NCBI GenBank assembly: GCA_051313645.2
Contig: JBNRSN020000010.1
Location: 12,090,001-12,154,000 of the forward strand
Direction: 5' to 3'
Length of the DNA stretch: 64,000 nt
From: Centroscyllium fabricii
Lineage: Eukaryota
The position numbers and the translations under genes are program-made. Positions 1,677 through 47,641 of the stretch are shown piece by piece (the stretch's first letter is position 1; each line of letters begins with the position of its first letter). Below the pieces are notes generated by a model. That model was not told the origin of the DNA, did not search any database, and saw nothing but the letters and a program-made list of their open reading frames with translations.

Positions 1677-1746
1677 ATGGTACGGCCATTAATTCTGCAG
1701 ATACGGGACATTTTCTACCATGTCCTCGCAGCATTTGGCATTCCCG
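1677..1746 (+). CDS. GPR139/GPR142-like GPCR copy A, exon 1 (MVRPLILQIRDIFYHVLAAFGIP, N-terminus + start of TM1)
   Basis: aatcATGG Kozak context, 70 nt = 23 codons + 1, donor G|gtaagt at 1746/1747. Phase 1 joins the acceptor ttacag|cg at 3379 to give ...FGIPANLLT (the TM1 GN/AN motif). Confidence 0.85.
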
Positions 1747-2409
1747 GTAAGTCAATGTATCCTGTTGCAAAATAACTGTTGACTATCTCAGTGTTAATGT
1801 AACAGATTCCGGGAATGTTCACATTGCAGAGTTATTTATTCACCGGGATCAGTCGGTGAAAATCGGCGGCAATCCTAGTCGTCTTCGCGACCGCTGAGGC
1901 GCTGTTCTGGTCATTAGATCGCGGGCATCGGGCACTTCTTGTTCCTCCCTATATTGAGGGAGGGTGAGTCTGATTCCCCGGCTTCTCCAACTAAAGAATG
2001 TGTTGCTCAGAGCCCGTAGTAATCAGGTAATTTGTGACGTTGTTCCCTGTGTGCATTAAGTTGATAATTGCTCGGAATGCAAAAACGTCCACACAGCAGG
2101 GGATTTGGAAAAGGTATTTTATGAAATAAATTCTACTCAGGAAGGTGCACTCCTCCTCTCGGCAGCGTTTGAGTAGAAGTTGAACGTTTTTTTTCGATCA
2201 GAGTTGAATATTTTATTTTGTATTATATCTTTCCATTAATTGCCGTGTAGTTACATTTAATGCTTGACTGAAGTTTTCTGGACAGACGGGGGATTTTCAG
2301 ACCCTCGAGAGTGAATGTTCAGTGATGTCATTGCTTTAAATGAGGTGTCTTCACCATCGCCTATATTAATGAAAAAATCAGTGCACATAACGCTAAATAG
2401 GAAAACATC

Positions 2410-2580
2410 TGAACATTGAAACATAGAAACATAGAAGATAGGGGCAGCAGTATGCCATTCGGCCCATCGAGCCTGCTCTGCCATTCAATGAGACTATGGC
2501 TGATCATCCAAACTCAGTACCCTCTCCCTGCCTTCTCCACATATCCCTTGATTCCTTTAGCCTTAAGAAACATATCTAAA
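2410..2580 (-). mobile_element. CR1/HER1 LINE 3' tail in GPCR intron
   Basis: (aacatagaa)n tail followed by the reverse complement of the CR1 3' UTR. Confidence 0.7.
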
Positions 2581-2589
2581 CATTTCCCC

Positions 2590-3322
2590 AAGAGCCCGAT
2601 ATTTCTGAGCCGTGCATATCCTGTTTGAGCTCTGGTGCGAGCGTACCAGAGCTCAAACCCGCATGAAGCAGCCGTTTGCGCTGATCATGACTTTCCGTAT
2701 ACGGCCCGCAAGGTGGGGGGGGGGTGCAGAGTTCCTGCTATGGTTATCGCAGAATTCCGGGTTTTTTTCTAAGATTTTCATCGGACCAAGCACTGAAGAT
2801 TCTGCGCTTGGAAAAAAGGAGTCGTTAGCACCCGGTTTTAGCAGGTAAGTCTTTATTTTATTGATTTAAAGTATTGTTCTTTCAGATTTTTAATTATTGT
2901 TAACTTTAAAGACAGGTAAGTATTTTTTAGGCCTATTAAATTGTGAAACATGTTTTTCAAAAATTTTATTTTTTCTTTAAAATAGGTGATTTATGTTAGT
3001 TGGATGAATTTTTTTTTTAAATGTGGTGTTTTTTAAAAAAAATTGTGTTTAGATGTGTTTTGGAAGATCTCTCTTTTGAAAACTTACACAGATTTCACCA
3101 TGTAAGTTTTTAATGGAGGATTGCTTCCATTGATTGGCTCCCTGCCGATCACGTGATCTCGTGGGAGATTTCTAATTACGCCACTTAATTGCCCAGGGAG
3201 CTCGCACAGAGCTGTGCAACTCGGAAAGTCACAGTGCAAAAACTAAAAACTGAAAAAGTGCTGGGCATGTGCAAATAAGAGTACTGCACCCACACGAATG
3301 CTCCTGGGCTAATTTCTGGCTT
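2590..3322. mobile_element. MITE-like non-autonomous repeat filling the 3' half of the GPCR intron
   Basis: GC-rich ends (gcccgatatt... / ...aatttctggc) around an AT-rich core with repeated caggtaagt motifs, a layout typical of shark interspersed repeats. Family not identified. Confidence 0.4.
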
Positions 3323-3378
3323 CTGTGAGATTTATCTGAATGACCCTGTTATTGACCTCTTGTTGCTCCTTCTTACAG

Positions 3379-4279
3379 CGAACCTATTGACAATATTGAT
3401 TCTCTCCAGAGGAAAATGCGGCCTTTCCAAATGTATCTCTGTCTACATGGTGGCCATGGCAGCAGCAGACCTACTGGTCATGATCATCAATATATTATTG
3501 AACCGCATTTTACGTTATCACTTCCCACATTCATTCCTGTCCTACACTGCCGTTTGTAAGCTCATTATATACCTGCAATCTGTTGCCCTCTATTTGTCGG
3601 TGTGGTTTACAGTCTCGTTCACATTTGACCGATTTGTAGCTATATGTTGTAAGAAGTTTAATACAACGTATTGTACAGTGAGAACTGCCGCTGCGGTTAT
3701 AACAACGGTCTCTGTCCTGATTTGTTTACAGAGCCTCCTGTTTTGGTTTTCGTTTGAACCTCAGCGAATAATTAACAATATTCACTGGGGTTGCCGCCCC
3801 AGACTGGAATTTTTGTCATCGCCTTTAGGAATTGCGTTTACCTGGTTGCTAGCATTTGTTTTTCTTGGCTTAGTTATGCTTTGATATTACTGTTTAATGG
3901 TTTGACAGCCAGACGTATTTTAGTGGCCAGTCGAGCCCGCAGGGGACTCCGGGGTCGCAGCAGTGAGAATCAGAGCGATCCAGAGATGGAGAGCCGAAGG
4001 AAATCCATCATTTTGCTGTTCACTGTATCGACCAGTTTTATACTGCTGTGGCTGACGGCTGTCGCATCTTCTTTACTTTCCAGCCTGCTAAGCACCGTGT
4101 ATTACAGAGGCGATTATGCAGCCCCTGCCTATATTGCCGTTGAAACCGGATATATGCTCATGTACTTGAGTTCCTGTACAAACACGTGCATTTATGCAGC
4201 TACACAAACCAAATTCAGGGAAGACCTGAAGCAGGTAGTGAAAACTCCTTGGACATTTATTTGCAAAAAAACGAAATAA
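3379..4279 (+). pseudogene. GPR139/GPR142-like GPCR copy A, exon 2, frameshifted
   Basis: AMAAADLLV (TM2), FTFDRFVAIC (TM3), SSCTNTCIY (TM7). One G is missing between 3849 and 3850 (ttgc-tagc vs ttgcGtagc at 47211), which splits it into ORFs 3360-3884 and 3791-4279. Confidence 0.9.
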
Positions 4280-4371
4280 TATAACAAAGATTCTGGTCCA
4301 AACTAGAGAGCAATTACTATGGTTTGCTGTTGAGAAAATTAAAAGGCATCAGAGAACATTTACTCGGAAGG

Positions 4372-4665
4372 TCAGCATTTATTGTCCATCCCTAATTGCT
4401 CTTGAGAAGGTGCTGATGAGCCGCCCTCTTGAACTGTTGCAATCCATGTGGTGAAGCTATTAGTAGTGTGTTGTTCGGGAGGGAGTTCCAGGATTTTGAC
4501 CCAGCGATGACGTATGAACGGCGATATACATCCAAGTCAGAATGGTGTGTGATTTGGAGGGGAACGTGGAGTTAGTGGTGTTCTCATGTGACTGTTGCCC
4601 TTGACCTTCGAGGTGGAAAGTTTTGCGTGTTTGGGAGGTGCTGCCGAATGTGCCTTGGCGAGTAA
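4372..4665 (-). mobile_element. LINE 3' fragment in GPCR 3' UTR (same family as 1-775)
   Basis: Reverse complement resembles 480-770 (gaacaccac...aagttccc.tcca...cacac.atcc.gacttgga). A candidate AATAAA follows at 4686. Confidence 0.65.
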
Positions 4666-5659
4666 ATTGGTACAAATGTTACAAAAATAAAAACAGAGTT
4701 ATAATTAAAATATTCACTTTGCCGAATTGCAATTAAAGGAACAAGAGCAAAATTATTGGTAATATAACAAAGGAAGGTAATCATCCATATCAACCCAAAC
4801 GAAAACGTGCTCGTTAAGTAAAGGTAACTATCAATGATGATAAAAAGATGAGTCCGTTAAATTTTCCATATATAGAGTTGTATTTTCACTTCTATATGAT
4901 TAGATAATGCAAAATTGTGAGGAATGATACGAAGAGGCAGTGGGAATGTGTCAGTTTGGAATGAGCTTTCGCAATGGTCTAAGAAAGATACTGAGTTCAG
5001 AACAAAACACTTTTGATCCCCAACAAACAATCAACATTTGTGATCGTAGTTAGTACCTTTCATTGTATGTTTCAGAACTATTGCAAATACTGTTTCCTTA
5101 ATATACCTATGTCACCTCACTGCAATGTTCAAGAACCTGATTGAAAACCTTTCGCTAACAATAGCTTCATTACTTTGTGAATGAGCTTCATTTATTAAAT
5201 GGGATTAAATGCCCTCTGTACCCATCAATCTTCAGAGTGCCACTTGATCCTGACCTTCTGTAAAAGCCAAACTCCACTTGGTTTCAAGTCTCTGTGGAGC
5301 CCAGACTTTGACAATCCGGCTGCCTTCCAGCTTCTGGGGAACTGATTATGAGTTTCGAGTAATTCTGTGTAACAGGCACATTCTCATTTAACAGCAGTCA
5401 GACGATCAATAGTAGTTACGGCTTCATGCAGTGGTTTTCACTCGATGACACCCAGAAGAGATGCATGTGCAGCCAGCTACAATCGTGAGAATTCCATCTG
5501 CAATCAACCACATTATTCAAAATCAAAAAGTAAAATAGAAAGCAAAGTTAACCATTACATAACCGTGTCAAATTGCATCCCATATGATTGTGATTCTGGA
5601 CCTCATTTCTAATTAAACAGCCACTACTTAAAATTCACTCTTCTATAAACGTTTCCAAT

Positions 5660-5790
5660 TCAGACGAAGGGTTCGATCCGAAACGTTATCTTTGTTTCTC
5701 TCTCCTCGATGCAGCCTGAACTGCTGAGTGATTCCAGCATTTTCTCTTGTTATTTCAGATTGCATGCTCCGCTCTATTTGGCTATTTGTA
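5660..5790 (+). mobile_element. Penelope-type terminal repeat fragment with degenerate hammerhead-like core
   Basis: cagacgaagggttcgatccgaaacgtt...gatgcagcctgaactgctgag...ttccagcattttc. The core reads CAGACGA...GAAA rather than CTGANGA...GAAA. Confidence 0.5.
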
Positions 5791-5864
5791 TTGACAAGTT
5801 GCTATGTGCTTCTGGCATTCCTGTGAACTCTATTTGTTATTAAACGGTGAATATCTTTCTACGT

Positions 5865-7060
5865 CCCCGAAATTACACTGTCTCTATCTCTAATCACACA
5901 GTTACTGTGAACCCTTAAATTGCCCTGTCTTCTATCTCTACTGACATCGTTACTGTGTTCCCCTAAATTACCCTGTCATCTAGCTCTCATTAAACAGTTA
6001 CTGTGTGCCCTAAATTACCCTGTCCCCTATCTCTAATTACGCAGTTACTGTGTTCCCCTAAATTATCTTGTCCTCTATCACTAATTACACGCTTACTGGG
6101 TAACGCTATACTACCCTGTCCTCTATCTACTTTGCACAGTTACTGGGCTCCCCTCAATTACCCTGTCCTCTTTCACTAATTACAGTTAGTTTCCCCTGAA
6201 GTACCCTGTCCGCGTGCCCTAATTATAATGACTACATTCCACCAAATTACCCTATTTAATTACACTGTTAATGTGATCCCCAAATTAACGTGTCCTCTAT
6301 CTCTAATTACACTGTTACTGTGTTCTCCTAAATGACCTTGTCCTCCCTCTAATTACACAGTTACTGTGTTCCCTTAAATTACCCTGTCTGCTATCTCTTA
6401 TTCCACCTTTAATGTGTTCCCATTAATTAAACTGTTCTCCATCTCTAATTATACAGTTGCAGTGTTCCTCTAAATTGCCCTGTCCTCTATTTCTACTTGC
6501 ACAGTTACTCTGTTGCTCTTAATTACACTGTCCTCTATCTATTATTAGACAATTACTAATTTCACCTAAATGACCCTGTCTTCTCTCAAGTCATTTACTC
6601 TATCACTGGATATAGAGTTAGTTTCCACTAAATAATCCTGTCCACACTCTCTCATTACAGTTTCATTTTCCACTAAATTACCCTGTCCTCTAGCTCTCAT
6701 TAAACAGCTACTGTCATCCCCTAAATTACCCTGTCCTCTATTTCCAATTACACATTTACTGGGTTCCTCTAAATTAGCCTACCCTCTATCTCAAATAACA
6801 CTGTTAGTGTAAAGTCAGTTTAATCTATTTCCGTATAATTACTGTCTGCATTACTCAAATTACCCATTTCTCTATTTCTAATTCAGCAATTGCTGTTTTA
6901 CCCTATATATCCCGTTATTCTACTGATAAGTAAACCATTGTTTAACTCCCCTAAAGTCTCCTTTATTCGAGTTTAATTAGAAAGTTGCTGCCTTCCCCTA
7001 AATATACCTTTCCTTTAATTTAATTTAGCACATACTGTAATCCCGTGAAGTCCCCTATTA
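5865..7060. repeat. 48-bp minisatellite (taaattaccctgtcctctatctctaattacacagttactgtgttcccc), ~25 units
   Basis: Visible 48-bp periodicity, decaying toward the right. Confidence 0.85.
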
Positions 7061-7544
7061 CCCATCGTGTAAGCTTTTGTTGTCCTGGAGTCCACCTCCT
7101 GCTGCCTTAATCCTATTCCAAATGAACAGGTGACCAGGCTGTTTCTCTTCCTAGACCCATGCTGTCAGATTATGAACAGTTCCCTCAGCTCTGGCACTAT
7201 CCGCTCCCTTTCAGATCAGCCACCCTCACTCCCTCATGGCAAATGCAACATTGAGTCCTCTACCTTTTGCAATCTACTGCCGCATCTCCAACATCATAAT
7301 CCTGTCCAAATACCTTATTGTTGGCGTATTGTCGGCCCCATAATTCGTGTCCATCTCTCCCGCAATTCCCTGTTTAAATCTATCCAATCTAATTTCTGCC
7401 TTTTCACAGCACTTGAAACGGCCATAATTGAATTCTCAAATTATATGCTCTGTGACTGTGACCATGGTGTAGCCCTGCAATCTTCCCGCGATCGATGCTG
7501 CGTGGTCCATCCAGTTTGATTCTTACGGAGTTTTGTAGTATTTT

Positions 7545-7880
7545 GTTACAACTAAGAGGCTTGCTGGTGTATTGCAGTCGCGAGTTAGAGTCAACACCAT
7601 TGCTGTGGGTCTGGAATCGCATATTTGCCTGACCTGGTAAGGACAGCAGATTCCTTCCCTGAAGGGCATTAGTGAACCAGTTGGGTTTTTAACACAGTGC
7701 AATACTTTCATGGCCACCATTACCGATACTAGCTTTTTATTCCAGACTTTTATTTCATTAATTGAATTTAATTTCCCCCAGCTGCGTAGTGGACGTTGAG
7801 CTCACGTCTCCAGATCATTACGTCATGGTCACTGGATTACTTGTCCAGCAATTCAAACGGTTTACCGTCATGCCCACCTG
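7545..7880 (-). mobile_element. tRNA-derived SINE (SacSINE1/Deu-like)
   Basis: Reverse strand reads ...aacccaactggttcactaatgcccttcagggaaggaatctgctgtccttaccagg... This is the empty site of the ERV found in copy B. Confidence 0.6.
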
Positions 7881-8056
7881 GGAGCCCAGAGTTAGAAATC
7901 GCATCATGTTATTGCTTCACTTTGTAAAGTCCTACTTCTGGTCAGTAATATCTCAGTTCCTGTTCCGTGACAGACTGATAGATCTACGTCTCATAGAGCT
8001 GTGCATGCAACAAGGAAATTAATATTCCCATGTTAATAAAGGAAAGCCACTAATGA

Positions 8057-8459
8057 GGGCGGCACGGTGGCACAGTCGTTAGCACTATTGTCTCACAGCA
8101 CTGGAGACCCGGGTTCAAATCCAGCCTCGGGTACTATCTGTGTGGAGTTTGCGCATTCTCCCCGTGTCTGCGTGGGTTTCCTCCGGGTGCTCCGGTTTCC
8201 TCCCACAGTCCAAAGATGTGCCGGTTAGGTTGATTGGCCATGATAAATTGACCCTTAGTGTTAGGGGGATTGAATAGGTGGAGTTACGGGGATAGGGTGG
8301 GATATGTGTCGATGCAGGCTCAATAGGGATCGAGGGATATGGGGAGAGGGCAGGGACGTGGTACTGGGTTTGGATGATCAGCCATGATCTCATTGAATGG
8401 CGGAGCAGGCTCGAAGGGCCGAATGACCTACTCCTGCTCCTATCTTCTATGTTTCTATG
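8057..8459 (+). mobile_element. Full-length HE1-type V-SINE
   Basis: tRNA-like head (gggcggcacggtggcacagt...ggttcaaatcc), V-core tgtgtggagtttgc..ttctccccgtgtctgcgtgggtttcctccgggtgctccgg, and CR1-derived tail ending ttctatgtttctatg. Confidence 0.9.
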
Positions 8460-8869
8460 ATTGCATCAAACACAGGAATGTCTGGTGAAAATATTTGTCG
8501 AGAGACAGATATACAAACACGAGGCCTATAAAATGAAAATGTAGACTTAGTGAAGAAGATCGACAGCGTTTTAGATTTTAGATTTAAAGTGAGGACAGGA
8601 GGACAGGAAATTCCACCTTTTTCTCAGCAACAACACATTGGTCATAGTCACTGTTTGCTCGTAGTTTCTGTTTCTTCTTCCTTGATAGGGTCATTTTTGT
8701 GCTGAATAATGGGTGCAGAAATTCAGCACAGCCCAGGATAACATGTGTGGATGAACAACTTCCACGTCTCCTCAGTCACAATCTCGCATTATTTAACATC
8801 TGGTAAACTGCACCTGAAAAACTCTGCCTCCCTTTTTAAATGCCCACCCCTCCACTGATGATAATCTTC

Positions 8870-9210
8870 TTCAAAGTCTCTCTCTCTCGCTCGCTGTACC
8901 TCACTATTTCGCTCTTGTCTCTATCTGTGCTTCACTCTCTTTTTCTTTCAGTCTTCTTTTCCTGTCGCTCTCTTGGTCTCCTCACTCTATTTTTGTATCC
9001 CTCTCTTTCTCCTCATTCGCTGCCTCGTTTTCTCTCTGTCCCTCTGTTTCGCTTGTATTTGCGTCACAGCCCCCTCTCTATATTTGTATCCCTCATTCTC
9101 TGTTTTTCGCTAATGTCTCGCTGTCTCATTGTGGATGTAATTGTCTATTTGTGAATGTCGTTGTCATCAATTGCTGCTTCTCTCCCTATATCTGTCTTTC
9201 TGTCTCTAGC
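8870..9210. repeat. CT-rich low-complexity tract
   Basis: Pyrimidine-rich (ct)n-like sequence; accounts for the spurious Leu/Ser-rich ORF 8840-9154. Confidence 0.7.
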
Positions 9211-9255
9211 CCTAAACCTTTGTGTGTTTGATGGGACAGCCCAACCTCTAACTCA

Positions 9256-10387
9256 CACATGGGATTGGGGGTAATGTGTTGACGTGGATTGAGAACTCGT
9301 TGGCACACAGGAAACAAAGAGTAGGAGTAAATAGGTACTTTTCAGAATGGCATGCAGTGACCAGCGGGGTACCGCAAGGTTCGGTGCTGGGTCCCCAGCT
9401 GTTTACATTATATATTAATGATCTGGACGAAGGGATTAAATGTTGAACTTCCAAATTTGCGGATGACACTAAATTGGGAGGCAGTGTGAGCTGCGAGGAG
9501 GATGCTAAGAGGCTACAGAGTGACTTGCACAGGTTAGGTGAATGGGCAAATATATGGTAAATGAAGTACAATGTTGATAAATGTGAGGTTATCCACTTTG
9601 GTGGTAAAAATAGAAAGACAGACTATTATTTGAATGGTGACAGATTAGGGAAAGGGGAGGTGCAACGAGATCTGGGCGTCCTGGTACATCAGTCACTGAA
9701 TGTGGAAATGCATGTACAGCAGGCAGTTAAGAAAGCAAACGGCATGTTGGTCTTCATAGCAAAGGGATTTGAGTACAGGAGTAGGGAGCTGTTGCTACAG
9801 TTGTACAGGGCTTTGGTGAGGCCACACTTTGAGTATTTTGTGCAGTTTTGGTCCCCTAACTTGATAAAGGGCATTTTACTATTGAGGGAGCGCAGCGAAG
9901 GTTCACTAGATTGATTCCTGGGATGGCCGGACTGACATATCAAGAAAGACTGGATCAACTGAACTTGTACTCTCTGGTGTTCAGCAGAATGAGGGAGATC
10001 TCATACAAATGTTTAAAATACTGACGGGTTTAGACAGGTTAGACGCGGGCAGAATGTTCCCATTGTTAGGGAAGTCCAAAACCAGGGGGCACAGACTAAG
10101 GTTAAGGGGTAAGCTATTTAGGACCGAGATGAGGAGAAACTTCTACACCCAGAGATGGTGAACCTGTGGAATTCTCTACCACAGAATGTTGTTGAGGTCA
10201 ATTCACTAAATATATTCAAAACGGAGTTAGATGTAATACTTACAACTAGGGGGATCAAGGGATATGGTGCGAAATCAGGAATGGGGTACTGATGTAGCAT
10301 GATCAGCAATGAACGTGTTGAATGGCGGTGCCTGCTCGAAGGGCCGAATGGTCTACTCCTGCACCTATTTTCTATGTATCTATGTTT
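9256..10387 (+). mobile_element. CR1 (HER1-like) LINE, 5'-truncated
   Basis: [37 protein letters not shown] motifs with stops and frameshifts; tail ctatgtatctatgttt. Confidence 0.92.
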
Positions 10388-11029
10388 CTCCCTTGATTTT
10401 GTTACTCTGCAACTTCCGCTGTCAGAGCAACAATTACCTGGAGTGGCACTTTGAAAGTAATATCGAAACGAACATAATCAACGCCAGAAGGTAACTGTAT
10501 CCGGTTAACCAGTTCTAGGTTGTAAGTGCACACCACTAGCCAGAAGAGAAGAGGAACAAAGTGTCACTTTGAGCAGACCTGTAGGAAACGTGGAGTAAAA
10601 TAGTCACATTTCAATCTTTGAAAATCAAGTTTACGTTAACAAGTTATCACGGTCCATCGCAGGTCAGATTGAGCTTCCTTTGACACAATAAAGTGCTTGA
10701 CCCTGTCGCAAGACAATTACTTTCAGTTCTTGAGACATCGAGAGGAAAGTCAATGTTCTAAGCATCTGGGATCAATACAACTAAAAATGAGATGTGAAGT
10801 CGATAACAAAGCAAATCTATTCTTCAGTCTTAAATTACAAGTTTGAAAATGACCGGAGCAGTGGAACAACCTCATTATTTTTCAGAAATATATCAAGTAC
10901 TTCTGGACCACCATCTCATTCTGTCCCCAGAGAAAATGTTAGCATCTTGTGAGCAAAAGCAAGACGTACATCTGAAAAAACCTCCAGCTACACCAAACAG
11001 CAACTGCCAACAGGTTAGGTTCCGTAGAA

Positions 11030-11800
11030 GTTTGACACATAATACACATCCATCTATCCTGTCCCATCAAACACACATAGGGCAGGTACAGCACGTGTTA
11101 CATAAAATGTAAAGCTCCCTCTACAATATCACATTTTATATTTCCAGGGCATGTAAGGCACTGGTGAGATACTGAGCAGAACTCACACTGCAATAGCCCT
11201 TCAAACACTCACACCAACTACCGTCAAGTTATACAGAGTAAGGGTTAGCTAACGCATGAGTCAAATACAGAGTTAAGCTCCATCTATTCCGTCCCATCAA
11301 ACACGCCCAGGGTAGGTACAGCATAGGTCATATAGGGAGTAAATATCTCGCTACACTGTCCCATCAAACACTCCCAGGGAAGGTGCAACTTGCGTCAGAT
11401 ACAGATTAAAACGACCTGTACAGTGGCCAATCAAACACTCACATCAACTAACATGAGTTAAAGTACATGAGTGGGCCAGATAAAACATGCGAAAGATACA
11501 GAGTATAGCTCCATCTACACTGGTCCATGAAACATTCCCAGGGCAGGTACAGCACAGGTTAGATACAGTTTGACGCGTTCGCTGCAATGTCCCAGCAAAA
11601 CCACCCAGGGAAGGTATAGCACGGGATAGATACAGAGTAAAGCTCTTTATATACTGTTCCATAAAGCAATCCTAGGTTTGGTACAATACGAGTTTGATAC
11701 ACAGTTAGTCTCCCTCTGTATATCCTTCTCAAATACTCAAGGTGCATTTACAGTTGTGGATATGGAATAGTGATTCATCTACGCAGTCCACTCAAACAAA
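11030..11800. repeat. ~67-bp minisatellite (ctacactgtcccatcaaacactcccagggcaggtacagcacgggttagatacagagtaaagctccct)
   Basis: About 11 diverged tandem units. Confidence 0.85.
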
Positions 11801-12227
11801 TATACGCTTAACACTGGCAGTTAGTCAATGGTTACACTCAGGATATGAAAAGAGAGTCATACCACCCAGATCAGCGCAATGTGGGCCAAATACTCTCCCA
11901 TTATATGGGCGTAGCTTTCTCTTGATGTGTTGCAAATGATAAAACTTGTCAGCAGTGAAATTGGTGCCAGGTCTGCCAAGGAACTGAAGAACATACGCTT
12001 GGTCAGACTTTCCTGTTCTGAGATGCCTGTTCATTGAAATGGATATAAGAATCATTGTTGAAGTCACTGTTGGAAAAGTGCTTCCACTTGTCTAGCAAAT
12101 CAGTCCAATAATGGAAACTCAGCACCGCAGGACATCAGGAATCAATAACAGTCATCCGAAGCTGGAGCATTTCTTAATACATGAGTTCAACTGTCAGTAC
12201 CATACATTCATCTCAATTAGACTCCAT

Positions 12228-12390
12228 GGGGGTAATTTTAACTTTGGACACGGGTGCAAAGTGGACGTTATTGAATTGGTCGCCATTTTATGCCACGCCC
12301 AATGTTCCCTTTGATTAACGTCATGGTGTATATTAGGCGGATAATTCCATATCGTCCATTTTACACCATCACTCAACGTTATAATTACCC
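12228..12390. mobile_element. MITE-like element with terminal inverted repeats
   Basis: gggtaattttaac ... gttataattaccc. A related, more decayed element lies at ~12625-12878. Confidence 0.55.
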
Positions 12391-13374
12391 AACACCGCAT
12401 ACTTTATTTCTGATCGATACTACCCTGTGTAACTAATTGTTGTATATTTATAAAAGCCCTTGCTATTTGCTGTTATGCTACCTGTTGTCCATTTGCTACC
12501 CAATTTTAAACCTTCCACTCTTCCGTTTGAAAACGCCAGTAAATATTTTACATTCCACGTGGCTATATTTAACATTATTAGCCACAAACTTCCTCAGATG
12601 CCTTCATTTGAAGTTTCCCCTTGCGGGTAATTTAAACTCTGGGCTATCGTATTCAGTGGTTGATATCCATTTAACCGCCCATTATAGGCCCGTTCAATTT
12701 TGCTTGCCCTGGGAGAAATTCTGACTGTGTGCCATTGTGTAAAATGGGTGATCGTGAATCGGAGGACGGCTTTACAACTTTCCCGAATGAGTAATTGAAA
12801 GGAAAATGTATTGAGGTGTATCTCGTGCGATCGAACTCATATGATCCGTTTTAAATTTTTGCCCAAAGTTAAAATGGCTATCATTCTGATGCACCCCGTC
12901 CTCCCAATATGTGATGGTTACTCTCAAGTTACTCTCCTCGTCTCATTGCAGTTATTTACCCCACTCAAATTTCCAGAACTGAAGCAAGCGATGTGTCTTT
13001 CCTTGTTGAATTGAAACATGCTGATCTGACAAGTAGCTCCGGATCCATTCTAAAATGTGTTCTACACTTTGACCACGCATATTCAGTTTATTTCTGTTTA
13101 TCTTGGGATAGATAAAATCCCCAATATGATTAAGCTTTAGTTGTTACATTATCCTTTGAACTGGTTGCAATTCTCCCCTTCTAACACATAGGCATAACGT
13201 TCTGTTATGTTGATCGATATTTGTAATTTGGCTCTTACTAATCGTCAACACTGTCCATGTGAATTCTGTCTCATTGTAACGTCTGTGATGTCATTGTTTT
13301 CTAGCGCTATAAGATAATCCTTCACTAACACTGCCACTCCAGAACCCTTTACTGCTAGTTTATCTCATGAACGC

Positions 13375-13640
13375 AGCAACAACTTGAACTTATATAGCGC
13401 CAATAGCGTACACTTCCCTCGGTGCTTCACAGGAGCGTGGAGAGATTTTTACAGGAGGATCAGAAATTTTAAACCGAAGTTTTGCAGAACAAGGGGGCAA
13501 TATAGGTCAGCGCAGACAGGAGAGGTGGGTGCACGGGACTTGGTGCAAGTTAAGGTTGGGGCCGCAGAACTTACAAACAGATCAAGATTATGCAGGGTTC
13601 AAGAAGGGAGAGCAGCCAGGAGAGCAGGCGAGTCCACTCT
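13375..13640 (-). mobile_element. L2-like LINE 3' fragment
   Basis: caacaacttgaacttatatagcgcc is the reverse complement of the L2-type terminus ggcgctatataa.t.caagttgttg. Confidence 0.55.
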
Positions 13641-13849
13641 AGAGATTACATAGGGATTAGAATATACTGAGCTTGATGGCCGGCGTGGACACGATGGACC
13701 AAATGGCCTCTCTCTGTGCTGTATAACTCTATGACTCTCTATCACTCTAATAGCAGGATGAGGGCTTCATTATCAAATGGGCAGAGGCAAGGAGGAAATC
13801 TCGAATATTAAGTTCCAAGCCCAGTTCAATTTTAAGATCTGTTCCTGCT

Positions 13850-15040
13850 ACAGAAACATTATATTCTCCATAATTCGGCCCCTCAAGCCTGTTCCGCCAT
13901 TTAATGAGATCATGTCTGATCATACAAATTCAGTACGCTGTCCCTGCTTTCTCCCCATATCGCTTGATCCCTTTAGCCTTAAGGAATATATCTAACTCCG
14001 CTTGAATATAGATAATGAATTGGTCTCAACTGCTTTCTGTGCTAGAGAACTCCACAGGTTCACCACTCCCTGGGTGAAGAAATTACACCTCATCTCAGTT
14101 CTAAAAGGGTTACCCCTTATCATTAGATCGTGACCCCTGGTTCTGGACTCCCCGCCATCGGGAACATCCTTCCTTCATCTAGTCTGTCTAACCCTGTTAC
14201 AATTGTATACGTTTGAAGGAGATCTCCTTCCATTCTTCGAAACTCTAGCGATTACAAGCCCAATCGACCCAATCTTTTCAAGACGTTATTCCTGCGATCC
14301 CAGGTATCAGTCTGGTGAATCATCGCTGCATTCCCTCCATGGCAAGAACATCCTTCCTCAGATAAGAACACCCAGGCCTCATGGCACTTCGCCTTTTGCC
14401 TATCTATTGTCATTCAGATAATAATCTGCCTTCCTGTTGTTACCACCATAGTGGGTAACATCGCATTTATCGATTTTATACTGCATCTGCAATGCATGTG
14501 CCCGATCATCCCACCTGTCCAAATCATACTGGAGTTTCTCTGCATTCTCATCACAGCATAGACGCCCACTGAGCTTTGTGTCGTTGGCAAACTTGGAGAT
14601 ATTACATCCAATTCTGTCATCTCGGTCATTCATAGATATTGTGAAGAACCGGGGTCCTCGCACCGATCCCTACGGTAGCCCACTAGTTACTGCCTGCTAC
14701 TCGGAAAAGGACATGTTTATTCCAACGCTTTGCTTCCTATCTGCCAACCAGTTCTCTATCCAGGTCAGTCCTTAGCCCCAAGTCCATGTGCTTTAAATTT
14801 GCACGCTAATTAATTATGCAACACCTTATCGAAAACCTTCTGAAAGTCCAAATACACCACATCCACTGGTTGTCCCTTATCTATTCTACCATATACATCC
14901 TCAAAAAATTCCAGTAGATTAGTCAAGCATGATTCAGCTTTTATAAATGCATGTTGACTTTGTCCGATTCTTTTACTGTTTTCCAAGTGCTCTGCTATTA
15001 CATCATTTATAATGAACTCTAGTATTTTCCCCGTTGCCAT
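13850..15040 (-). mobile_element. CR1 LINE fragment with internal deletions
   Basis: Minus ORFs SCLTNLLEFFEDV..VDVVYLDFQKVFDKV and ISKFANDTKL; CR1 3' UTR at 13850-14000. Confidence 0.9.
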
Positions 15041-17590: not shown

Positions 17591-17599
17591 ATCAATGAA

Positions 17600-20500: not shown

Positions 20501-21390
20501 TAGGGTCACCCCCATTAATGTTAGATAGGAGTCACCACCACTCATGATATAGTAGATTCACTGCCAGATTGTTAGATTCGATTCACCACAAGTAATGATA
20601 TAGTAGATTAACCAGCAGTAATGTTAGAGCAGATAAATCTCCAGCAATTGTAGAGTAGGTTCACCAGCAGTAACGTCAGAGTAGGAACACCACAAATACT
20701 GTTAGAATAGAGTATCCACCAATAATGTTAAAGTAGCGTCAGAACAATTAATGTAATGGTAGGGTCGCCACCAGCAATGTTTGTGTAGGCTCACCTCCAG
20801 TAATGAAAAAGTCGAGTCACCACCAGTTATGTTAGAGTTCAGTCACCACCAGTAATGTTAGGGTTGGTTTACGCTGGGTATTGTTAAAGTATGGTTACCA
20901 TCATTAATGTTATAGCAGAGTCACCACCAGTAATGTTAGGGTTGGTTTACCACCATTAATGTTAGAGTAGGACCAAAACACAGTCATGTAAGGTTTTGGT
21001 CACCACAATTATGTTGGAGTAGGCTCATCCTCAGTAATTACAAGTAGGATTAGCATCAGTAATTTTAGTGTAACTTTTCCAGCAATACTGTTAGAATGGC
21101 CCTCGCCTGTTCTTGTTTCTGCTGCGTTACCATAGGTCGTGTTAGAGTATAAGCACCACCAGTAACGAGAGAATAGGATCAAATCCAATGGCGGTACAAT
21201 AGGATTACACGTATTAATGTCAGCGTAGCTTCATCGCAAATAATCTTAGAGTAGGATCACGGCCAGCAACGTAAGAGCGGAGTCATCACTAGTAATGTTA
21301 GCGATGAATCATCGCCAGTATTGTTAGCAAAGAATGATTGTCGGTAATATTAAATCGGAGTCATAACTAGTTATCATTATAGTAAAAAAA
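17600..21390. repeat. 26-bp minisatellite array (~130 units) with higher-order sub-duplications
   Basis: Unit gtaatgttagagtagagtcaccacca. Block 19657-19802 recurs at 19917-20062 (260 bp = 10 units). A SINE is inserted at 17936-18341. Confidence 0.95.
17936..18341 (-). mobile_element. Full-length HE1-type V-SINE inserted in the minisatellite
   Basis: Reverse complement of the 8057-8459 family. Confidence 0.9.
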
Positions 21391-21660: not shown

Positions 21661-21672
21661 ACAGTTATTTTA

Positions 21673-21742
21673 ATGGAACTGTTAACAATTATGCAGATGA
21701 AGCAAATTTACTACCCAGTTCTCGCAACATTTGGGGTTCCCG
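21673..21742 (+). CDS. Orphan exon 1 of a third GPR139-like paralogue (MELLTIMQMKQIYYPVLATFGVP)
   Basis: ATG at 21673, 70 nt, donor G|gtaagc, same length and phase as 1677-1746. Intron homology continues to ~21950 (cctccctata). I found no same-strand exon 2 before 46740. Confidence 0.8.
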
Positions 21743-27906: not shown

Positions 27907-28165
27907 TTAGGAAAGGATTAGAATTTTCCTTCTTTTCCAAATAGATCTCCATGGAATTTTCATCACTTGTTTTAGCTTCACCCTGAATTTAGTTTGAGTA
28001 TCTGCATACATACAGGTGTTTGTACAGGAACTCAAATAAATGAGCATATATCCGGTTTCAGTGGCAATATTCACCTCAATACTGTGTTTGTCGGTGTGGT
28101 AGTTGCAAAATTAACAAATGTCAGCCAACAACGGTAAAAAAAAACAGCTCCATAAAGTGGACAGT
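27907..28165 (-). pseudogene. Inverted 3' remnant (TM6-TM7-C-tail) of a GPR139-like exon 2
   Basis: Minus strand translates IATETGYMLIYLSSCTNTCMYADTQTKFRVKLKQVMKIPW...ILS*, versus IAVETGYMLMYLSSCTNTCIYAATQTKFREDLKQVVKTPW in copy B. The upstream part has indels and abuts Gypsy protease sequence. Confidence 0.9.
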
Positions 28166-42215: not shown

Positions 42216-42221
42216 TCAAGG

Positions 42222-44107
42222 ACGACGGTGTCAATCATGGGAGAGCAAAAGACAATGCTGACGTGTTCGCAACCATCTTCAGCCAATATTGCCGAGTGGA
42301 TGATCCATCTCGGCCTGCTCCTGAGATCGCCACCATCAGTGTCAGTTTCAGCCAAATCGATTCACTCCAAGCAACATCAATGTATGACTGACCGCGCTTG
42401 CTACGGTAGAGGCCGTGGCCCAACAGCCTCTGTGCTGTGCTGCTGCAGATTTGTGATCCAGATGTAGCTGGACTTCTTGCCAACCTGTTTCAGTGCAACA
42501 GCAACACTGGCATCTACCGATATAGTGAAAACTTACCCCGGACTGTCCTGTCGACAAAAAGCAGGACAAATCAAATTGGGCCAATTACCGCTCCATCAAC
42601 TTACTCTCAAGTATCAGCAAAGTGAAGGAAGGTGTCATCGTCTTTGCTATCAAGCGTCACTTGCTAATCACTAATCTGCTAATCGATGCTCAGTTGGGTT
42701 CCGCCACGATCACATGGCTCCAGATCTCATTACAGCTTTGTTCAAACATGGACAAAGGATCAGAATTCCAGAGGTGAGGTGACAATGATTGCCCCGGAAA
42801 CCAACAGGCATTTGCTCGAGTCTGACATCCAACAACACTGGTAAGACTTCACTGGCTGGAGTCATACCGAGCAAAAAGCAAGATTGTTGCAGGCCAGTCA
42901 TATCTGCCGAAGGATTTACTCAGGGCAGTGTCCGAGACACAACCATCTTCAGCAGCTTCATCATTGAAGATCCTGCCATCATAAGAACAGAGGAGTCAGG
43001 TTGTTCGCTACTGTTTGCAGAGTGTTGCATTTATTCTCAGCTCCTGTGATATTGATGCCCACATACAGCGAGACCAGGGAAACTGGCAGGCCTGGGCTGA
43101 TAAATGGCAAGAAACATTGCTGACAGACATTTTGCAGGAAATTACAAACTCCAAAAAGACAGAAAGTAAACACCTCCCCTTAACATTCAACAGCATTACC
43201 ATCGTCCAGACTCCCACAATAAACATCGCAGGGGACACCAATGACCAGATAATTAACAGGACGAGCTACAGCAGTAATGTAACTGCAACAGCAGGTCAGA
43301 GATCGGGTATTCTGCGACGAGTTTCCCACCCCCTGACTCCCCAACACTTTTCTACCTGCTACAAGGCACATGTCAGGAGTGTGATGGAATACACAGAAAC
43401 ACAGAGGATAGGAGCAGGAGTAGGACATTTGGTCCTTCGAGGCTGCTCTGCCATTTTGATGAGATCATGGCTGATCATCCAAACCCAGCACCCCCCATCC
43501 TACCCTCTCCCCATATCGCTCGACACCACTAACTCTAAGAACTATATCTCACACACATCCTAATGGGCAATTTTTAGTATCTCCAATTCACCTAACCTGC
43601 ATGTCTTTGGGTACTCGCCACTTGCCTGGATAAGTGCAGCTCCAATATTCAAGAAGCTCAAAACCATCCAGGACAAAGCAGCCCGCTTGATTGGCACAGA
43701 ACCAACATGTTCACCATTAACTCCGTCCACCACCAGTACATTGTGTCTGCAGTGTGTACCATCTAAAAGATGTACTGCAGCATCTCGCCAGGTTTCTTCG
43801 ACAGAACCTCCCAGACATGCGAACTCTGCAGCCAGGAAGGACAAGGCCAGCAGTTGAATTGCGAACACCACCACCTGCAAGTTCTCCTCCAAGTTACACA
43901 CTATCCAGACTTGGAAATATGTCGCCGTTCCTTCACCATCATTCGGTCAAAATCATGGAAATACCTCCCCAACGGCACTGTGGGAGGACCTTCACAAATA
44001 GACTGCAGTGGTTTAAGAAGGCGGCTGATCACCAACATCTGAAGTGTAGTTCGGGATGGGGATTAATGGCTGGCCTTGACATTGACACCAACATCCCGTG
44101 AACAAAT
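42222..44107 (+). mobile_element. CR1/L2-clade LINE with deletions and an inserted SINE fragment (~43393-43607)
   Basis: AWADKWQ, ATAGQRSGILRRV, YKAHVRSVMEY, IQDKAARLIG motifs. Confidence 0.8.
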
Positions 44108-44119
44108 AAGGAAGAGGTC

Positions 44120-44650
44120 AACAGAAGTAATGGTAGAGATTAGTCACGACCCATTAGCTTAGAGTATCGTTCAAAGCAGTAACATTTCAGAAGAGCCACT
44201 ACCAGCTATATTAGAATCGGATCATCACGAATAATGTTATATTAAGGTCAGCTGCAGTAATATTACAGCCAAGTAATCACCAGTAATAAGGTCGTAGAGT
44301 CACCAACAGCAACGTGACAGTGGGGACTTCGGTATTAATGTAAGAGTAGGATCATCCCTGTCATGTTTATGTAGGGCCGCCACCAGTAATAATCGAGTAG
44401 GGTCAAACACTGTCAAGTTATAGTTCAGGCTCAACCTGTAGGTTGTAATGTACGAGTAGGGTCATCAGCAGTTTGTTTTAGTAGTGTCATCACAAGTAAT
44501 GTTAGAGTAGTGTCATCAGCATTAATATTAGAGAAGTGTCACCGGCAATATTGTTAGAGTGGAGTCACCACCAGTAATGTCAGTGCAGGGTCAGCACCAG
44601 TCCTGTTACAGCCGATTCAACATCATTCATCATCATAGTACAAAACAAAT
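44120..44650. repeat. Degenerate 26-bp minisatellite upstream of GPCR copy B
   Basis: Copy of 790-1320. Confidence 0.8.
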
Positions 44651-44771
44651 TTTAATTATGCAATGGATGAGTGACGATTTCACGAAATCAACGCAGTGTC
44701 CGGGGGAATATTTGTTTACACCTTCAGGGTTTGCTGGGCATGCGCAGAGTTCATTTCCTCTGGGATAACTT

Positions 44772-44952
44772 TGATGGGCGGAATTTCATGGACTGAGCTG
44801 TTCAATTTCCCCATTGGCCGCCCGGGCGCACTGGACCAGAAAATCGCCCCTTGTTTGTTAAGTGACTGTAACTAACGCCAATTATTGTGAAACCTAATTT
44901 TCTCACCGGGGCACCGATTGTTCTATAAATTGGAAGCATTTACGGATCTCAG
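44772..44952 (+). promoter_or_regulatory. Putative core promoter of GPCR copy B
   Basis: TATAAA at 44924-44929, with CCAAT and GC box as in copy A. Confidence 0.6.
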
Positions 44953-45008
44953 AATCACTCCAGTGAGAATCGTAAAGCAGCGCAAAAATCACAAAAATCT
45001 TCCAAATC

Positions 45009-45078
45009 ATGGTACGGCCATTAATTCTGCAGATACGGGACATTTTCTACCATGTCCTCGCAGCATTTGGCATTCCCG
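45009..45078 (+). CDS. GPR139/GPR142-like GPCR copy B, exon 1
   Basis: ATG at 45009, MVRPLILQIRDIFYHVLAAFGIP, donor G|gtaagt. Confidence 0.88.
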
Positions 45079-46739
45079 GTAAGTCAATGTATCCTGTTGC
45101 AAAATAACTGTTGACTATCTCAGTGTTAATGTAACAGATTCCGGGAATGTTCACATTGCAGAGTTATTTATTCACCGGGATCAGTCGGTGAAAATCGGCG
45201 GCAATCCTAGTCGTCTTCGCGACCGCTGAGGCGCTGTTCTATGCATTAGATCGCGGGCATCGGGCACTTCTTGTTCCTCCCTATATTGAGGGAGGGTGAG
45301 CCTGATTCCCCGGCCTCTCCAACTAAAGAATGTGTTGCTCAGAGCCCGTAGTAATCAGGTAATTTGTGACGTTGTTCCCTGTGTGCATTAAGTTGATAAT
45401 TGCTCGGAATGCAAAAACGTCCACACAGCAGGGGATTTGGAAAAGGTATTTTATGAAATAAATTCTACTCAGGAAGGTGTGCTCCTCCTCTCGGCAGCGT
45501 TTGAGTAGAAGTTGAACGTTTTTTTTCGATCGGAGTTGAATATTTTATTTTGTATTATATCTTTCCATTAATTGCCGTGTAGTTACATTTAATGCTTGAC
45601 TGAAGTTTTCTGGACAGACGGGGGATTTTCAGACCCTCGAGAGTGAATGTTCAGTGATGTCATTGCTTTAAATGAGGTGTCTTCACCATCGCCTATATTA
45701 ATGAAAAAATCCGTGCACATAACGCTAAATAGGAAAACATCTGAACATTGAAACATAGAAACATAGAAGATAGGGGCAGCAGTATGCCATTCGGCCCATC
45801 GAGCCTGCTCTGCCATTCAATGAGACTATGGCTGATCATCCAAACTCAGTACCCTCTCCCTGCCTTCTCCCCATATCCCTTGATTCCTTTAGCCTTAAGA
45901 AACATATCTAAACATTTCCCCAAGAGCCCGATATTCCCGAGCCGTGCATATCCTGTTTGAGCTCTGGTGCGAGCGTACCAGAGCTCAAACCCGCATGAAG
46001 CAGCCGTTTGCGCTGATCATGACTTTCCGTATACGGCCCGCAGGGGGGGGGGGGCGGGGGGGGCAGAGTTCCTGCTATGGTTATCGCAGAAACCAGCGCA
46101 CCACGTGGTGCGCTGAAACATTACGGGTTTTTTTCTAAGATTTTCATCGGACCAAGCACTGAAGATTCTGCGCTTGGAAAAAAGGAGTCGTTAGCACCCG
46201 GTTTTACAGGTAAGTCTTTATTTTATTGATTTAAAGTATTGTTCTTTCAGATTTTTAATTATTGTTAACTTTAAAGACGGGTAAGTATTTTTTATGCCTA
46301 TTAAATTGTGAAACATGTTTTTCAAAATTTTTATTTTTTCTTTAAAATAGGTGATTTATGTTAGTTGGATGATTTTTTTTTTAATGTGGTGTTTTTAAAA
46401 AAAAATTGTGTTTAGATGTGTTTTGGAAGATCTCTCTTTTGAAAACTTACACAGATTTCACCATGTAAGTTTTTAATGGAGGATTACTTCCATTGATTGG
46501 CTCCCTGCCGATCACGTGATCTCGTGGGAGATTTCTAATTACGCCACTTAATTGCCCAGGGAGCTCGCACAGAGCTGTGCAACTTGGAAAGTCACAGTGC
46601 AAAAACTAAAAACTGAAAAAGTGCTGGGCATGTGCAAATAAGAGTACTGCACCCACACGAATGCTCCTGGGCTAATTTCTGGCTTCTGTGAGATTTATCC
46701 GAATGACTGTTATTGACCTCTTGTTGCTCCTTCTTACAG

Positions 46740-47641
46740 CGAACCTATTGACAATCGTGATTCTCTCCAGAGGAAAATGCGGCCTTTCCAAATGTATCTC
46801 TTTCTACATGGTGGCCATGGCAGCAGCAGACCTACTGGTCATGATCATCAATATATTATTGAACCGCATTTTACGTTATCACTTCCCACATTCATTCCTG
46901 TCCTACACTGCCGTTTGTAAGCTCATTATATACCTGCAATCTGTTGCCCTCTATTTGTCGGTGTGGTTTACAGTCTCGTTCACATTTGACCGATTTGTAG
47001 CTATATGTTGTAAGAAGTTTAATACAACGTATTGTACAGTGAGAACTGCCGCTGCGGTTATAACAACGGTCTCTGTCCTGATTTGTTTACAGAGCCTCCT
47101 GTTTTGGTTTTCGTTTGAACCTCAGCGAATAAGTAACAATATTCACTGGGGTTGCCGCCCCAGACTGGAATTTTTGTCATCGCCTTTAGGAATTGCGTTT
47201 ACCTGGTTGCGTAGCATTTGTTTTTCTTGGCTTAGTTATGCTTTGATATTACTGTTTAATGGTTTGACAGCCAGACGTATTTTAGTGGCCAGTCGAGCCC
47301 GCAGGGGACTCCGGGGTCGCAGCAGTGAGAATCAGAGCGATCCAGAGATGGAGAGCCGAAGGAAATCCATCATTTTGCTGTTCACTGTATCGACCAGTTT
47401 TATACTGCTGTGGCTGACAGCTGTCGCATCTTCTTTACTTTCCAGCCTGCTAAGCACCGTGTATTACAGAGGCGATTATGCAGCCCCTGCCTATATTGCC
47501 GTTGAAACCGGATATATGCTCATGTACTTGAGTTCCTGTACAAACACGTGCATTTATGCAGCTACACAAACCAAATTCAGGGAAGACCTGAAGCAGGTAG
47601 TGAAAACTCCTTGGACATTTATTTGCAAAAAAACGAAATAA
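46740..47641 (+). CDS. GPR139/GPR142-like class A GPCR copy B, exon 2 (intact; 323 aa spliced)
   Basis: Acceptor ttcttacag|c, 902 nt open to TAA. Seven hydrophobic segments, TM2 AADL, TM3 Cys and DRF, ECL2 Cys (WGC), TM7 NTCIY, helix 8 TKFR. Confidence 0.95.

Follow-up and report, generated by a model that had tools for sequence, protein, structure and literature searches.

A GPR139/142-related class A receptor gene of Centroscyllium fabricii is a member of an expanded elasmobranch family with a diversified pocket and a possible role in chemosensing

The window analysed here is a 64,000-nucleotide stretch of DNA from Centroscyllium fabricii (GCA_051313645.2, contig JBNRSN020000010.1, positions 12,090,001 to 12,154,000). 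A sequence-only reading had described four pieces of receptor genes within 46 kb, an intact gene, a frameshifted near-copy, an orphan first exon and an inverted exon 2 remnant, and we found all four again (copies B, A, C and D respectively). Copy B is a two-exon gene on the forward strand. Its first exon (45009..45078) starts with an ATG, encodes the N-terminus and the first half of TM1, and ends at a phase-1 GT donor; its second exon (46740..47641) follows an AG acceptor and runs from the remainder of TM1 to the stop codon. The spliced coding sequence is 972 nt (323 aa) with an intact open reading frame, and a TATAAA lies at −85 for exon 1. Copy A, also on the forward strand, has an exon 1 (1677..1746) with the same sequence as that of B, and a frameshifted exon 2 (3379..4279) that makes it a pseudogene. 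A 1-bp deletion at about position 3850, outside any homopolymer, shifts the frame where TM5 starts and leaves a 191-aa product. Beyond this deletion, manual inspection of the differences between the two coding sequences gives three non-synonymous and two synonymous changes.

Copy C (21673..21742, forward strand) is an orphan exon 1 of a diverged paralogue that has retained its ATG, open frame and GT donor. It shares 70% nucleotide identity with B across 512 bp including the flanks (E 3e-56), but there was no TATAAA in the 300 bp upstream, and no exon 2 for it was found. Copy D (27925..28104, reverse strand) is the inverted remnant of a diverged paralogue, covering TM7, helix 8 and the C-terminus, and Gypsy-type sequence adjoins it. 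Its 59 codons of TM7 to helix 8 scored 76 bits, compared with 21.6 bits for the best background in the masked window. Because the cores of D and B differ by a dN of 0.11 and a dS of 0.62 (dN/dS about 0.18), D was formerly a constrained gene. A single destroyed paralogue may have left both C and D as its two ends, and thus the four pieces may be three genes; the best matches of C and D differ. The window yielded no additional gene fragments when 120 homologues were used as queries.

A and B lie in two copies of one segmental duplication, which are 97–99% identical and both on the forward strand. The first copy (1..14574) holds A and has its left end beyond the window; the second (43333..63644) holds B together with a copy-specific 5.66-kb LTR-element insertion. 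A 26-bp satellite occupies 17632..21335, upstream of C, and short arrays of the same unit are also found upstream of A (1113–1276) and B (44445–44608). It is distinctly unlikely that the assembly has placed two haplotypes in tandem as A and B, or that the frameshift in A is a base error, and such a local artefact would touch the copy count of the window, not the family. The low divergence around the gene (about 0.9%) and a fold-back of 63277–63455 at the right breakpoint are what an artefact might leave. Against it stand the absence of N gaps from the window, a divergence of about 2.2% past the LTR insertion, the position of the A deletion outside a homopolymer, and the copy-specific LTR element itself, which has a 4-bp target duplication and LTRs that differ at 12 of 478 sites.

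B is a class A (rhodopsin-like) GPCR by both domain and fold. Exon 2 matches Pfam 7tm_1 (E 3e-22), and the structure model (pLDDT 80.7) has a seven-helix fold with an ECL2 hairpin as in peptide receptors. Fold searches with this model matched peptide GPCRs at Z 23–25 (rmsd about 3 Å across about 260 residues), showing a class A fold of the peptide type. They do not single out GPR139, which took 18th place in both searches, at most about 1.4 Z below the top. The cysteine pair of C3.25 and ECL2, D/ER3.50, W6.48, N7.49 and Y7.53 are all present in B and in 114–120 of the 120 closest relatives. Among these relatives R3.50, N5.58, N7.49 and Y7.53 are invariant (120/120) and both disulphide cysteines nearly so, and P6.50 and P7.50 are mostly missing across the family. 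B has a serine at position 5.50, where 116 of the 120 have proline, but it departs at 4 of 91 conserved columns, which is the family median. The motifs DRF, NTCIY and LLWLT are present as had been claimed, and N1.50 is residue 25. These oddities and the short N-terminus had been read as signs of a chemoreceptor. We do not consider them indicative of chemosensation, because most are common to single-copy relatives, which have F3.51 (85/86), T6.50 (78/86), no P7.50, and 24–27 residues ahead of 1.50.

B belongs to a large family. Among 4,789 candidates, 2,356 clusters were matched at E ≤ 1e-3, and 103 representatives at 50% identity reached E ≤ 1e-30. The best 120 of the 2,356 matches are elasmobranch throughout, come from 16 species and mostly carry the automatic name ‘probable GPR139’; within these 120 there are 30 clusters from Pristiophorus, 29 from Heterodontus and 28 from Heptranchias. 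Thus, the earlier proposal of an expanded GPR139/142-related family with birth-and-death turnover holds, and a family of few copies genome-wide is contradicted by 28–30 clusters per species in the best 120 alone. Species labels on the tree required 39 changes, compared with a minimum of 15 and a mean of 73.6 after shuffling, a pattern that suggests old subfamilies together with species-specific bursts. Copies are retained in both sharks and rays, and no holocephalan was seen among the named matches. We are almost certain that an elasmobranch GPR139-like family with birth-and-death turnover exists. The description ‘chondrichthyan-specific’ must be revised: the best 120 are all elasmobranch, and a sister gene, apparently in single copy, persists in amphibians and sturgeon.

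The expanded family is apparently undescribed. Searches of the CC-licensed literature in PMC and bioRxiv found no paper that describes an expansion of GPR139-like genes in sharks. ‘GPR139’ does not occur in the main texts of PMC10620051, PMC10116579, PMC10869828, PMC8455134 and PMC6368271, that of PMC11979771 contains no ‘139’, and the searched supplements of PMC13188829 and PMC8455134 gave no GPR139 match.

GPR139 appears to be the nearest characterised receptor, within a GPR139/142-related clade in the wide sense. Among solved structures GPR139 scored 67.4 bits in a family profile search (next best 52.5) and 37.7 compared with 36.2 in a single-sequence search; the affinity to GPR139/142 rests on these searches, as our trees were built without GPR139/142 sequences. 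The family resembles GPR139 and GPR142 in the patterns of TM1, TM3, TM5 and TM7, in N5.58 and in the missing proline at 7.50. It differs in having an N-terminus 19 residues shorter ahead of 1.50, in having C3.25, and in its many copies, compared with one copy of GPR139/142 per genome. Of the GPR139 Trp/Phe pocket F3.33/H5x43/W6.48/R6.51/N7x38 (PMC5430874, PMC8807744), B has W6.48 only (1/5); at most two of the five residues are kept in 118 of the 120 relatives, and R/K6.51 in none (0/120). Sensing of Trp/Phe in the manner of GPR139, as once suggested for this locus, is thus unsupported because the key pocket residues have not been retained. Pocket residues and copy number also rule out 1:1 orthology to GPR139/142, as far as these two features and trees without GPR139/142 can test it.

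The sister of the shark family is an apparently single-copy ‘GPR139-like’ gene of amphibians and sturgeon (Pleurodeles P0217, Acipenser P0411; support 100/100). This gene has an equally short N-terminus and a similar ICL3 and TM6 start. However, each of the 20 amphibian species has a single cluster of this gene, its 12-site pocket is invariant (one fingerprint in 20), it retains K6.51, P6.50 and the ECL2 glycan sequon (20/20), and it is about 29% identical to the shark family. A second ‘GPR139-like’ gene is pan-gnathostome (Latimeria P0227, Scyliorhinus P0269). It belongs to the same wider clade and shares the short N-terminus, F3.51, T6.50 and lack of P7.50, but it forms its own clade (100/99), is kept by sharks additionally, and has a conserved pocket with R6.51 (R/K in 85/86). 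No expansion of it was seen, and the tree rules out 1:1 orthology between it and the shark family. It is possibly the GPR210A/B of Rinne et al. 2019 (PMC6504862).

Site rates show that the pocket is diversified. We defined the pocket as 19 positions from PMC8807744 and PMC5430874, mapped by alignment, and expressed rates relative to the TM mean, treating sites as independent. The four sets were 120 near paralogues, 59 deep paralogues (52 of them without a taxon name), 20 amphibian orthologues and 86 gnathostome orthologues. Pocket rates were 1.70 and 2.12 in the near and deep paralogues, but 0.37 and 0.77 in the amphibian and gnathostome orthologues. Intracellular-loop rates showed the opposite pattern, with 0.92 and 0.95 in the paralogues and 2.46 and 1.93 in the orthologues (permutation p 0.006–0.0001 for the pocket/loop contrast). 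In pairs matched at 60–70% non-pocket TM identity, pocket identity was 0.44 in the family compared with 0.73 and 0.89 in the single-copy sets. The family pocket also evolved faster than the remaining outer-TM sites (p 0.013 and 0.0003), a difference that is not an obvious consequence of simple relaxation. Fingerprints of 12 pocket sites, picked after the data had been seen, were distinct in 30/30 and 29/29 cases inside one species, and each of three sharks has at least 23–30 distinct pockets per genome. A variable pocket with conserved intracellular loops is consistent with a multi-ligand repertoire whose members share one output, and we believe that the family probably is one.

Based on these results, we propose a model in which B, to all appearances intact, belongs to an elasmobranch class A family that expanded from a GPR139/142-related ancestral gene, still an apparent single copy in amphibians and sturgeon. 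Segmental duplication in repeat-rich DNA, as seen in the window, creates new copies, and frameshift, inversion and transposon insertion, also seen there, kill them. In surviving copies the site rates show that the orthosteric pocket (TM2, 3, 5, 6 and 7) diversifies while the intracellular G-protein face is fixed. The paralogues would then each recognise their own small molecule or short peptide and share a single G-protein route, and the family would thus work like an OR, V1R, TAAR or T2R repertoire.

The most likely use of such a repertoire may be the detection of external chemicals by sensory cells, such as microvillous olfactory neurons, taste cells or solitary chemosensory cells. This is our best guess, and it falls just short of an even chance. 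According to the available part of PMC10869828, cartilaginous fishes have many olfactory neurons, yet their known olfactory receptor genes average 43.8. We put forward, as a tentative possibility, that an additional, so far unrecognised chemoreceptor family of sharks and rays arose within the GPR139/sex-peptide/FMRFamide receptor lineage, numbering tens of genes per genome, perhaps 100 or more, rivalling or exceeding the known OR, TAAR, V1R and V2R genes (mean 43.8), and with one or few expressed per cell in nose, taste organs or skin.

Several points stand against external chemosensing. OR, TAAR, V1R and T2R genes are not known to carry a coding intron, unlike the family gene. A diversified pocket is also a mark of immune and internal sensor families such as FPR and MRGPR. 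GPR139, the nearest characterised relative, is described as a brain receptor (PMC12208981), and catshark olfactory neurons as all Go/TRPC2-positive with a V2R-dominated known repertoire (PMC10116579). In sharks, the expanded V2R and OR genes frequently show expression in tissues beyond the nose (PMC11979771, section 13). The top-50 catshark brain and olfactory gene list, in the available part of the same paper, contains no GPCR; this is weak counter-evidence because V2R is missing from the list as well.

The paralogues may instead be an immune or barrier repertoire on leukocytes or epithelia that senses microbial or damage-derived peptides and metabolites like FPR or MRGPR, but we think this unlikely. 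A variable pocket with conserved loops would be equally expected, the fold is nearest to peptide receptors, and MAS1 and its relatives are missing from cartilaginous fishes, which leaves this role vacant (available part of PMC8455134). However, the lineage descends from neuropeptide-type receptors, as far as the available part of PMC8514136 describes it, and chemokine receptors scored 52 bits against the family profile compared with 67 for GPR139.

Another reading is internal or reproductive signalling, in which diversified endogenous peptides or metabolites, including sex-peptide-like signals, act in brain, gut, gonad or sperm. GPR139/142 share a common origin with MIP, sex-peptide and FMRFamide receptors (available parts of PMC12208981 and PMC8514136). 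GPR139 is a CNS receptor, FMRFamide-receptor-like clusters are among the atlas neighbours, and the modelled ECL2 hairpin is peptide-receptor-like. This reading is also unlikely, in our view: in receptors for endogenous ligands the pocket is retained, as is the case in both single-copy relatives, and the 30/30 and 29/29 distinct fingerprints per species (at sites picked after the data were seen) would need a matching ligand family. We know of no ligand family with such diversity. Largely non-adaptive amplification, in which repeats drive the duplication of a small gene cassette whose pocket is relaxed and whose copies are in many cases dead or silent, would account for three of four broken window pieces, the satellite- and transposon-rich setting and the missing P5.50 of B, but is quite improbable given the 120/120 invariant residues and nearly invariant disulphide cysteines, intracellular loops more conserved than those of single-copy genes, a D–B dN/dS of about 0.18, and the persistence of copies across sharks and rays.

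If external chemosensing is correct, vertebrates would gain a new chemoreceptor family of independent origin, which would explain how the large olfactory organs of sharks operate with so few known receptors. Only six canonical receptor families are counted in reviews of shark chemosensation, whose conclusion is that sharks have a very small repertoire (available parts of PMC10869828, PMC10116579 and PMC6368271); the present family, annotated under the misleading name ‘probable GPR139’, falls outside their receptor counts. Even if its role is immune or endocrine, it would probably rank with the largest expansions of GPCRs known in cartilaginous fishes, in which a paucity of GPCRs has been reported (available part of PMC8455134). 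For the ancestral ligand, a model is at hand in the single-copy amphibian sister gene.

Compared with the vertebrate OR, TAAR, V1R/ORA, V2R/OlfC, T1R and T2R repertoires, the elasmobranch family likewise duplicates in clusters, contains pseudogenes, expands in bursts within single species, combines a hypervariable pocket with a conserved signalling face, and has a short N-terminus. It differs in ancestry, as it matches Pfam 7tm_1 only and comes from a peptide-receptor lineage, in its coding intron in TM1, and in that its sensory role is putative. It is not a member of these families: 7tm_1 was the only one of 24,736 Pfam models with a match at E ≤ 0.1, and no OR, TAAR, V1R, V2R or T2R was among 54 PDB sequence matches. 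A second parallel is found in the nematode srw and lophotrochozoan FMRFamide-receptor-like expansions, which are linked to chemosensation. The atlas neighbours of our family carry Srw/Srx Pfam families and belong to the same ancient receptor lineage, but the expansions are independent, and the invertebrate-like sequences fall outside the chordate clade in the tree.

The intact copy, B, is a class A GPCR gene of two exons on the forward strand; exon 1 (45009-45078) ends in a phase-1 GT donor and, joined to exon 2 (46740-47641), encodes 323 aa. Pfam 7tm_1 was the only match of exon 2 (E 3.4e-22), and its predicted structure (pLDDT 80.7) is the helical bundle of a class A receptor, in which ECL2 forms a hairpin. 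B departs from conserved columns at 4 of 91 positions, the same as the family median, and because position 5.50 is Ser, its function is uncertain. A (1677-1746 and 3379-4279, forward strand) is a pseudogene: relative to B, it has five substitutions in the coding sequence and a 1-bp deletion at ~3850, which stops its protein at 191 aa. C (21673-21742, forward strand) is the orphan first exon of a diverged paralogue, with an open frame, ATG and donor, and shares 70% identity with B across 512 bp, flanks included. TATAAA lies at -85 in A and B and is missing in C. D (27925-28104, reverse strand) is an inverted remnant coding for TM7-helix 8 (76 bits, where the background reaches 21.6 at most; dN 0.11 and dS 0.62 relative to B). 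Thus, the intact gene, frameshifted copy, orphan exon 1 and inverted exon 2 remnant described in the sequence-only reading are all present; no further gene pieces were found in the window, which has no N bases, with 120 homologues as queries. A exon 1 and C share the same phase-1 donor and strand and lie upstream of B exon 2 (46740), so their alternation as first exons onto B exon 2 is possible in principle. There is also a conserved block 5' of B (44820-45008) and of C (21486-21672). As this region matches a mis-predicted N-terminal extension of the Heterodontus protein P0034, the proximal promoter/UTR of the gene seems to be conserved across species.

A and B lie in the two copies of a segmental duplication (1-14574 and 43333-63644, respectively). 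The copies diverge by ~0.9% around the gene (1-7841) and by ~2.2% (7843-14574) past the insertion site of a decayed, env-bearing LTR element of 5.66 kb (51209-56862), which is found in the B copy only. This element has TG...CA ends, a 4-bp target duplication, 12 differences between its LTRs over 478 sites, an extra piece of ~195 bp in its left LTR, and fragmented ORFs matching Pfam TLV_coat, rve and RVT_1. The step in divergence suggests a gene-conversion tract over the gene, and we infer a true duplication that was later homogenised near the gene. A less probable reading is that the block represents two haplotypes assembled in tandem. At its right end, an inverted copy (99.4%) of 63277-63455 occupies 63643-63821 and reflects either a breakpoint with fold-back or a join made during assembly. 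Returning to a true duplication, C and D are older than it, and they may be a single paralogue split by inversion and transposons; D adjoins a fragmented Ty3/Gypsy-type sequence (28114-35800, reverse strand; protease, RT, RNase H). Together these events imply a minimum of two duplications and two losses in a set of three or four genes, in keeping with the repeated duplication and loss proposed earlier. A 26-bp satellite lies 5' of the first exons of C (17632-21335, ~100 copies), A (1113-1276) and B (44445-44608), and it could be carried along with the gene cassette or favour unequal crossing-over. A 48-bp minisatellite lies downstream of A (5864-6810) and B (49227-50172).

When B exon 2 was used as the query (E<=1e-3, clusters at 90% identity), 2,356 clusters matched among 4,789 candidates. 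The best 120 were all elasmobranch (120/120), came from 16 species, were 50-73% identical to the query and were mostly auto-named 'probable GPR139'. By hand count, they include at least 30 clusters in Pristiophorus, at least 29 in Heterodontus, at least 28 in Heptranchias, at least nine and at least seven in two Scyliorhinus species, and one each in several rays; these are lower bounds because they are drawn from the best 120 of 2,356 matches, down to 367 bits. Some Heptranchias clusters have identical TM regions, which leaves at least 23 distinct pockets in Heptranchias. Clustering at 50% identity gave 103 representatives at E<=1e-30. We infer that most of the 2,356 clusters are family members, roughly 100 in each genome. 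Species labels change 39 times on the family tree (minimum 15; shuffled 73.6), which indicates old subfamilies plus species-specific bursts. The proposed expansion of the receptor family is supported in these sharks. No holocephalan occurred among the named matches of the family and relative searches. The family proteins are already in public annotations. We found no description of the expansion in CC-licensed PMC and bioRxiv literature, including the main texts of shark and chemoreceptor papers and the supplements of PMC13188829. The family is a probable receptor repertoire expanded from an unexpected lineage.

Two 'GPR139-like' genes are apparently single-copy relatives. One has one cluster per species in 20/20 amphibians and occurs in sturgeon (48 matches among 8,000 scored candidates; P0217, P0388-P0407, P0411). 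The other is pan-gnathostome (145 matches among 1,739 candidates; rows P0227, P0269-P0386); among the best 120 of its 145 matches it has ~1-2 clusters per species in sharks, coelacanth, ray-finned fishes, amphibians and reptiles, and none in a mammal or bird. Two records of these genes carry the name TMEM183A isoforms, hinting at linkage. In a mixture-model tree of 58 rows (31 family rows hand-picked across diversity; GPR139 and GPR142 left out), the family grouped with the amphibian/sturgeon gene at 100/100 and by itself at 94/77, the pan-gnathostome gene formed a separate clade (100/99), and lamprey and amphioxus rows fell outside; two other analyses agreed. Adjacent locus numbers among the amphioxus relatives (P0387, P0410, P0417; P0391, P0414; P0255, P0423) suggest that these too form small tandem clusters. 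Both single-copy genes look unstudied, and their strongly conserved pockets make them good targets in the search for an ancestral ligand.

We defined the pocket as 19 positions drawn from published structural and mutagenesis work on GPR139 (PMC8807744, PMC5430874) and placed by hand through a family-GPR139 alignment; the entropy table was known before the list was fixed, the list itself coming from the papers. Rates were estimated for four sets: the 120 near paralogues; a deep set of 59, made up of 52 near-full-length rows among the 150 listed at 50% identity and of 7 sharks and rays with names; the amphibian orthologues (20); and the pan-gnathostome rows that carry names (86 of the 120 listed, the 34 unnamed ones being dropped). 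In this order, and relative to the TM mean, the pocket rate was 1.70, 2.12, 0.37 and 0.77; the non-pocket outer-half TM rate was 1.15, 1.07, 1.30 and 1.22; and the rate of the intracellular loops and helix 8 was 0.92, 0.95, 2.46 and 1.93. Permutation of the pocket rank shift gave p = 0.006, 0.0014, 0.0006 and 0.0001. Three limits apply to these results: the sites are not independent of one another, the amphibians span a short tree, and rates of protein change are no proof of positive selection. Adding 11 class A positions, which we take to line the pocket, gave a 30-site set with a stronger shift; a 7-site core gave a weaker one (within-set p 0.09 for near and 0.067 for gnathostome). Across all TM sites, with the pocket list unused, the top shifts were at 6.51, 2.61, 3.33, 3.29, 5.39, 7.39, 6.55, 7.43 and 5.42. 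When pairs were matched for identity outside the pocket (60-70%), identity within it was 0.44 for paralogues and 0.73 and 0.89 for orthologues; loop identity was 0.68 for paralogues and 0.49 and 0.52 for orthologues. An ECL2 N-glycan sequon is present in 20/20 amphibian and 78/86 gnathostome orthologues and in 5/120 of the shark family; B has no extracellular sequon.

In this family, genes have duplicated and decayed, the class A signalling core and cytoplasmic face are conserved, and the pocket has diversified. We think it probable that the paralogues bind many ligands and feed one G-protein output. As to where they act, we tentatively predict external chemosensing, a little short of an even bet. 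The lineage of GPR139 and the MIP, sex-peptide and FMRFamide receptors may be linked with invertebrate chemoreceptor expansions; the family has Srw/Srx-bearing neighbours in the Atlas. Excerpts from the literature bear on the nose in both directions. In its favour, the known olfactory receptor genes of cartilaginous fishes number 43.8 on average, and their olfactory neurons are many (PMC10869828). Against it, or neutral, are the reports that every olfactory neuron of the catshark is Go/TRPC2-positive and V2Rs predominate (PMC10116579), that sharks often express OR and V2R genes outside the nose (PMC11979771), and that GPR139 is a brain receptor, kin of the MIP, sex-peptide and FMRFamide receptors (PMC12208981, PMC8514136). 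Internal or reproductive signalling is unlikely, and immune or barrier sensing equally so. An explanation mostly by drift seems to us quite improbable.

Among characterised receptors, GPR139 is the closest: the human receptor was the best match of the family profile to solved structures (67.4 bits; runner-up 52.5), although fold searches did not discriminate among peptide receptors. The survey by Rinne et al. (PMC6504862), made without sharks, describes GPR210A/B as GPR139/142-related orphans of fish and coelacanth. Sensing of Trp/Phe as in GPR139 is not supported for B. The residues of that site (F3.33, H5x43, W6.48, R6.51 and N7x38) are S, R, W, A and Y in B, so that W6.48 alone is kept; at most two are kept in 118/120 of its relatives, and R/K at 6.51, found in 20/20 amphibian and 85/86 gnathostome orthologues, occurs in 0/120 of the family. 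The short N-terminus and motif oddities were also pointed out in the sequence-only reading. The short N-terminus and the absence of P7.50 are common to the family and both single-copy genes, and F3.51 and T6.50 to the family and the pan-gnathostome gene; judged from these alignments, they are clade traits and no mark of a sensory role.
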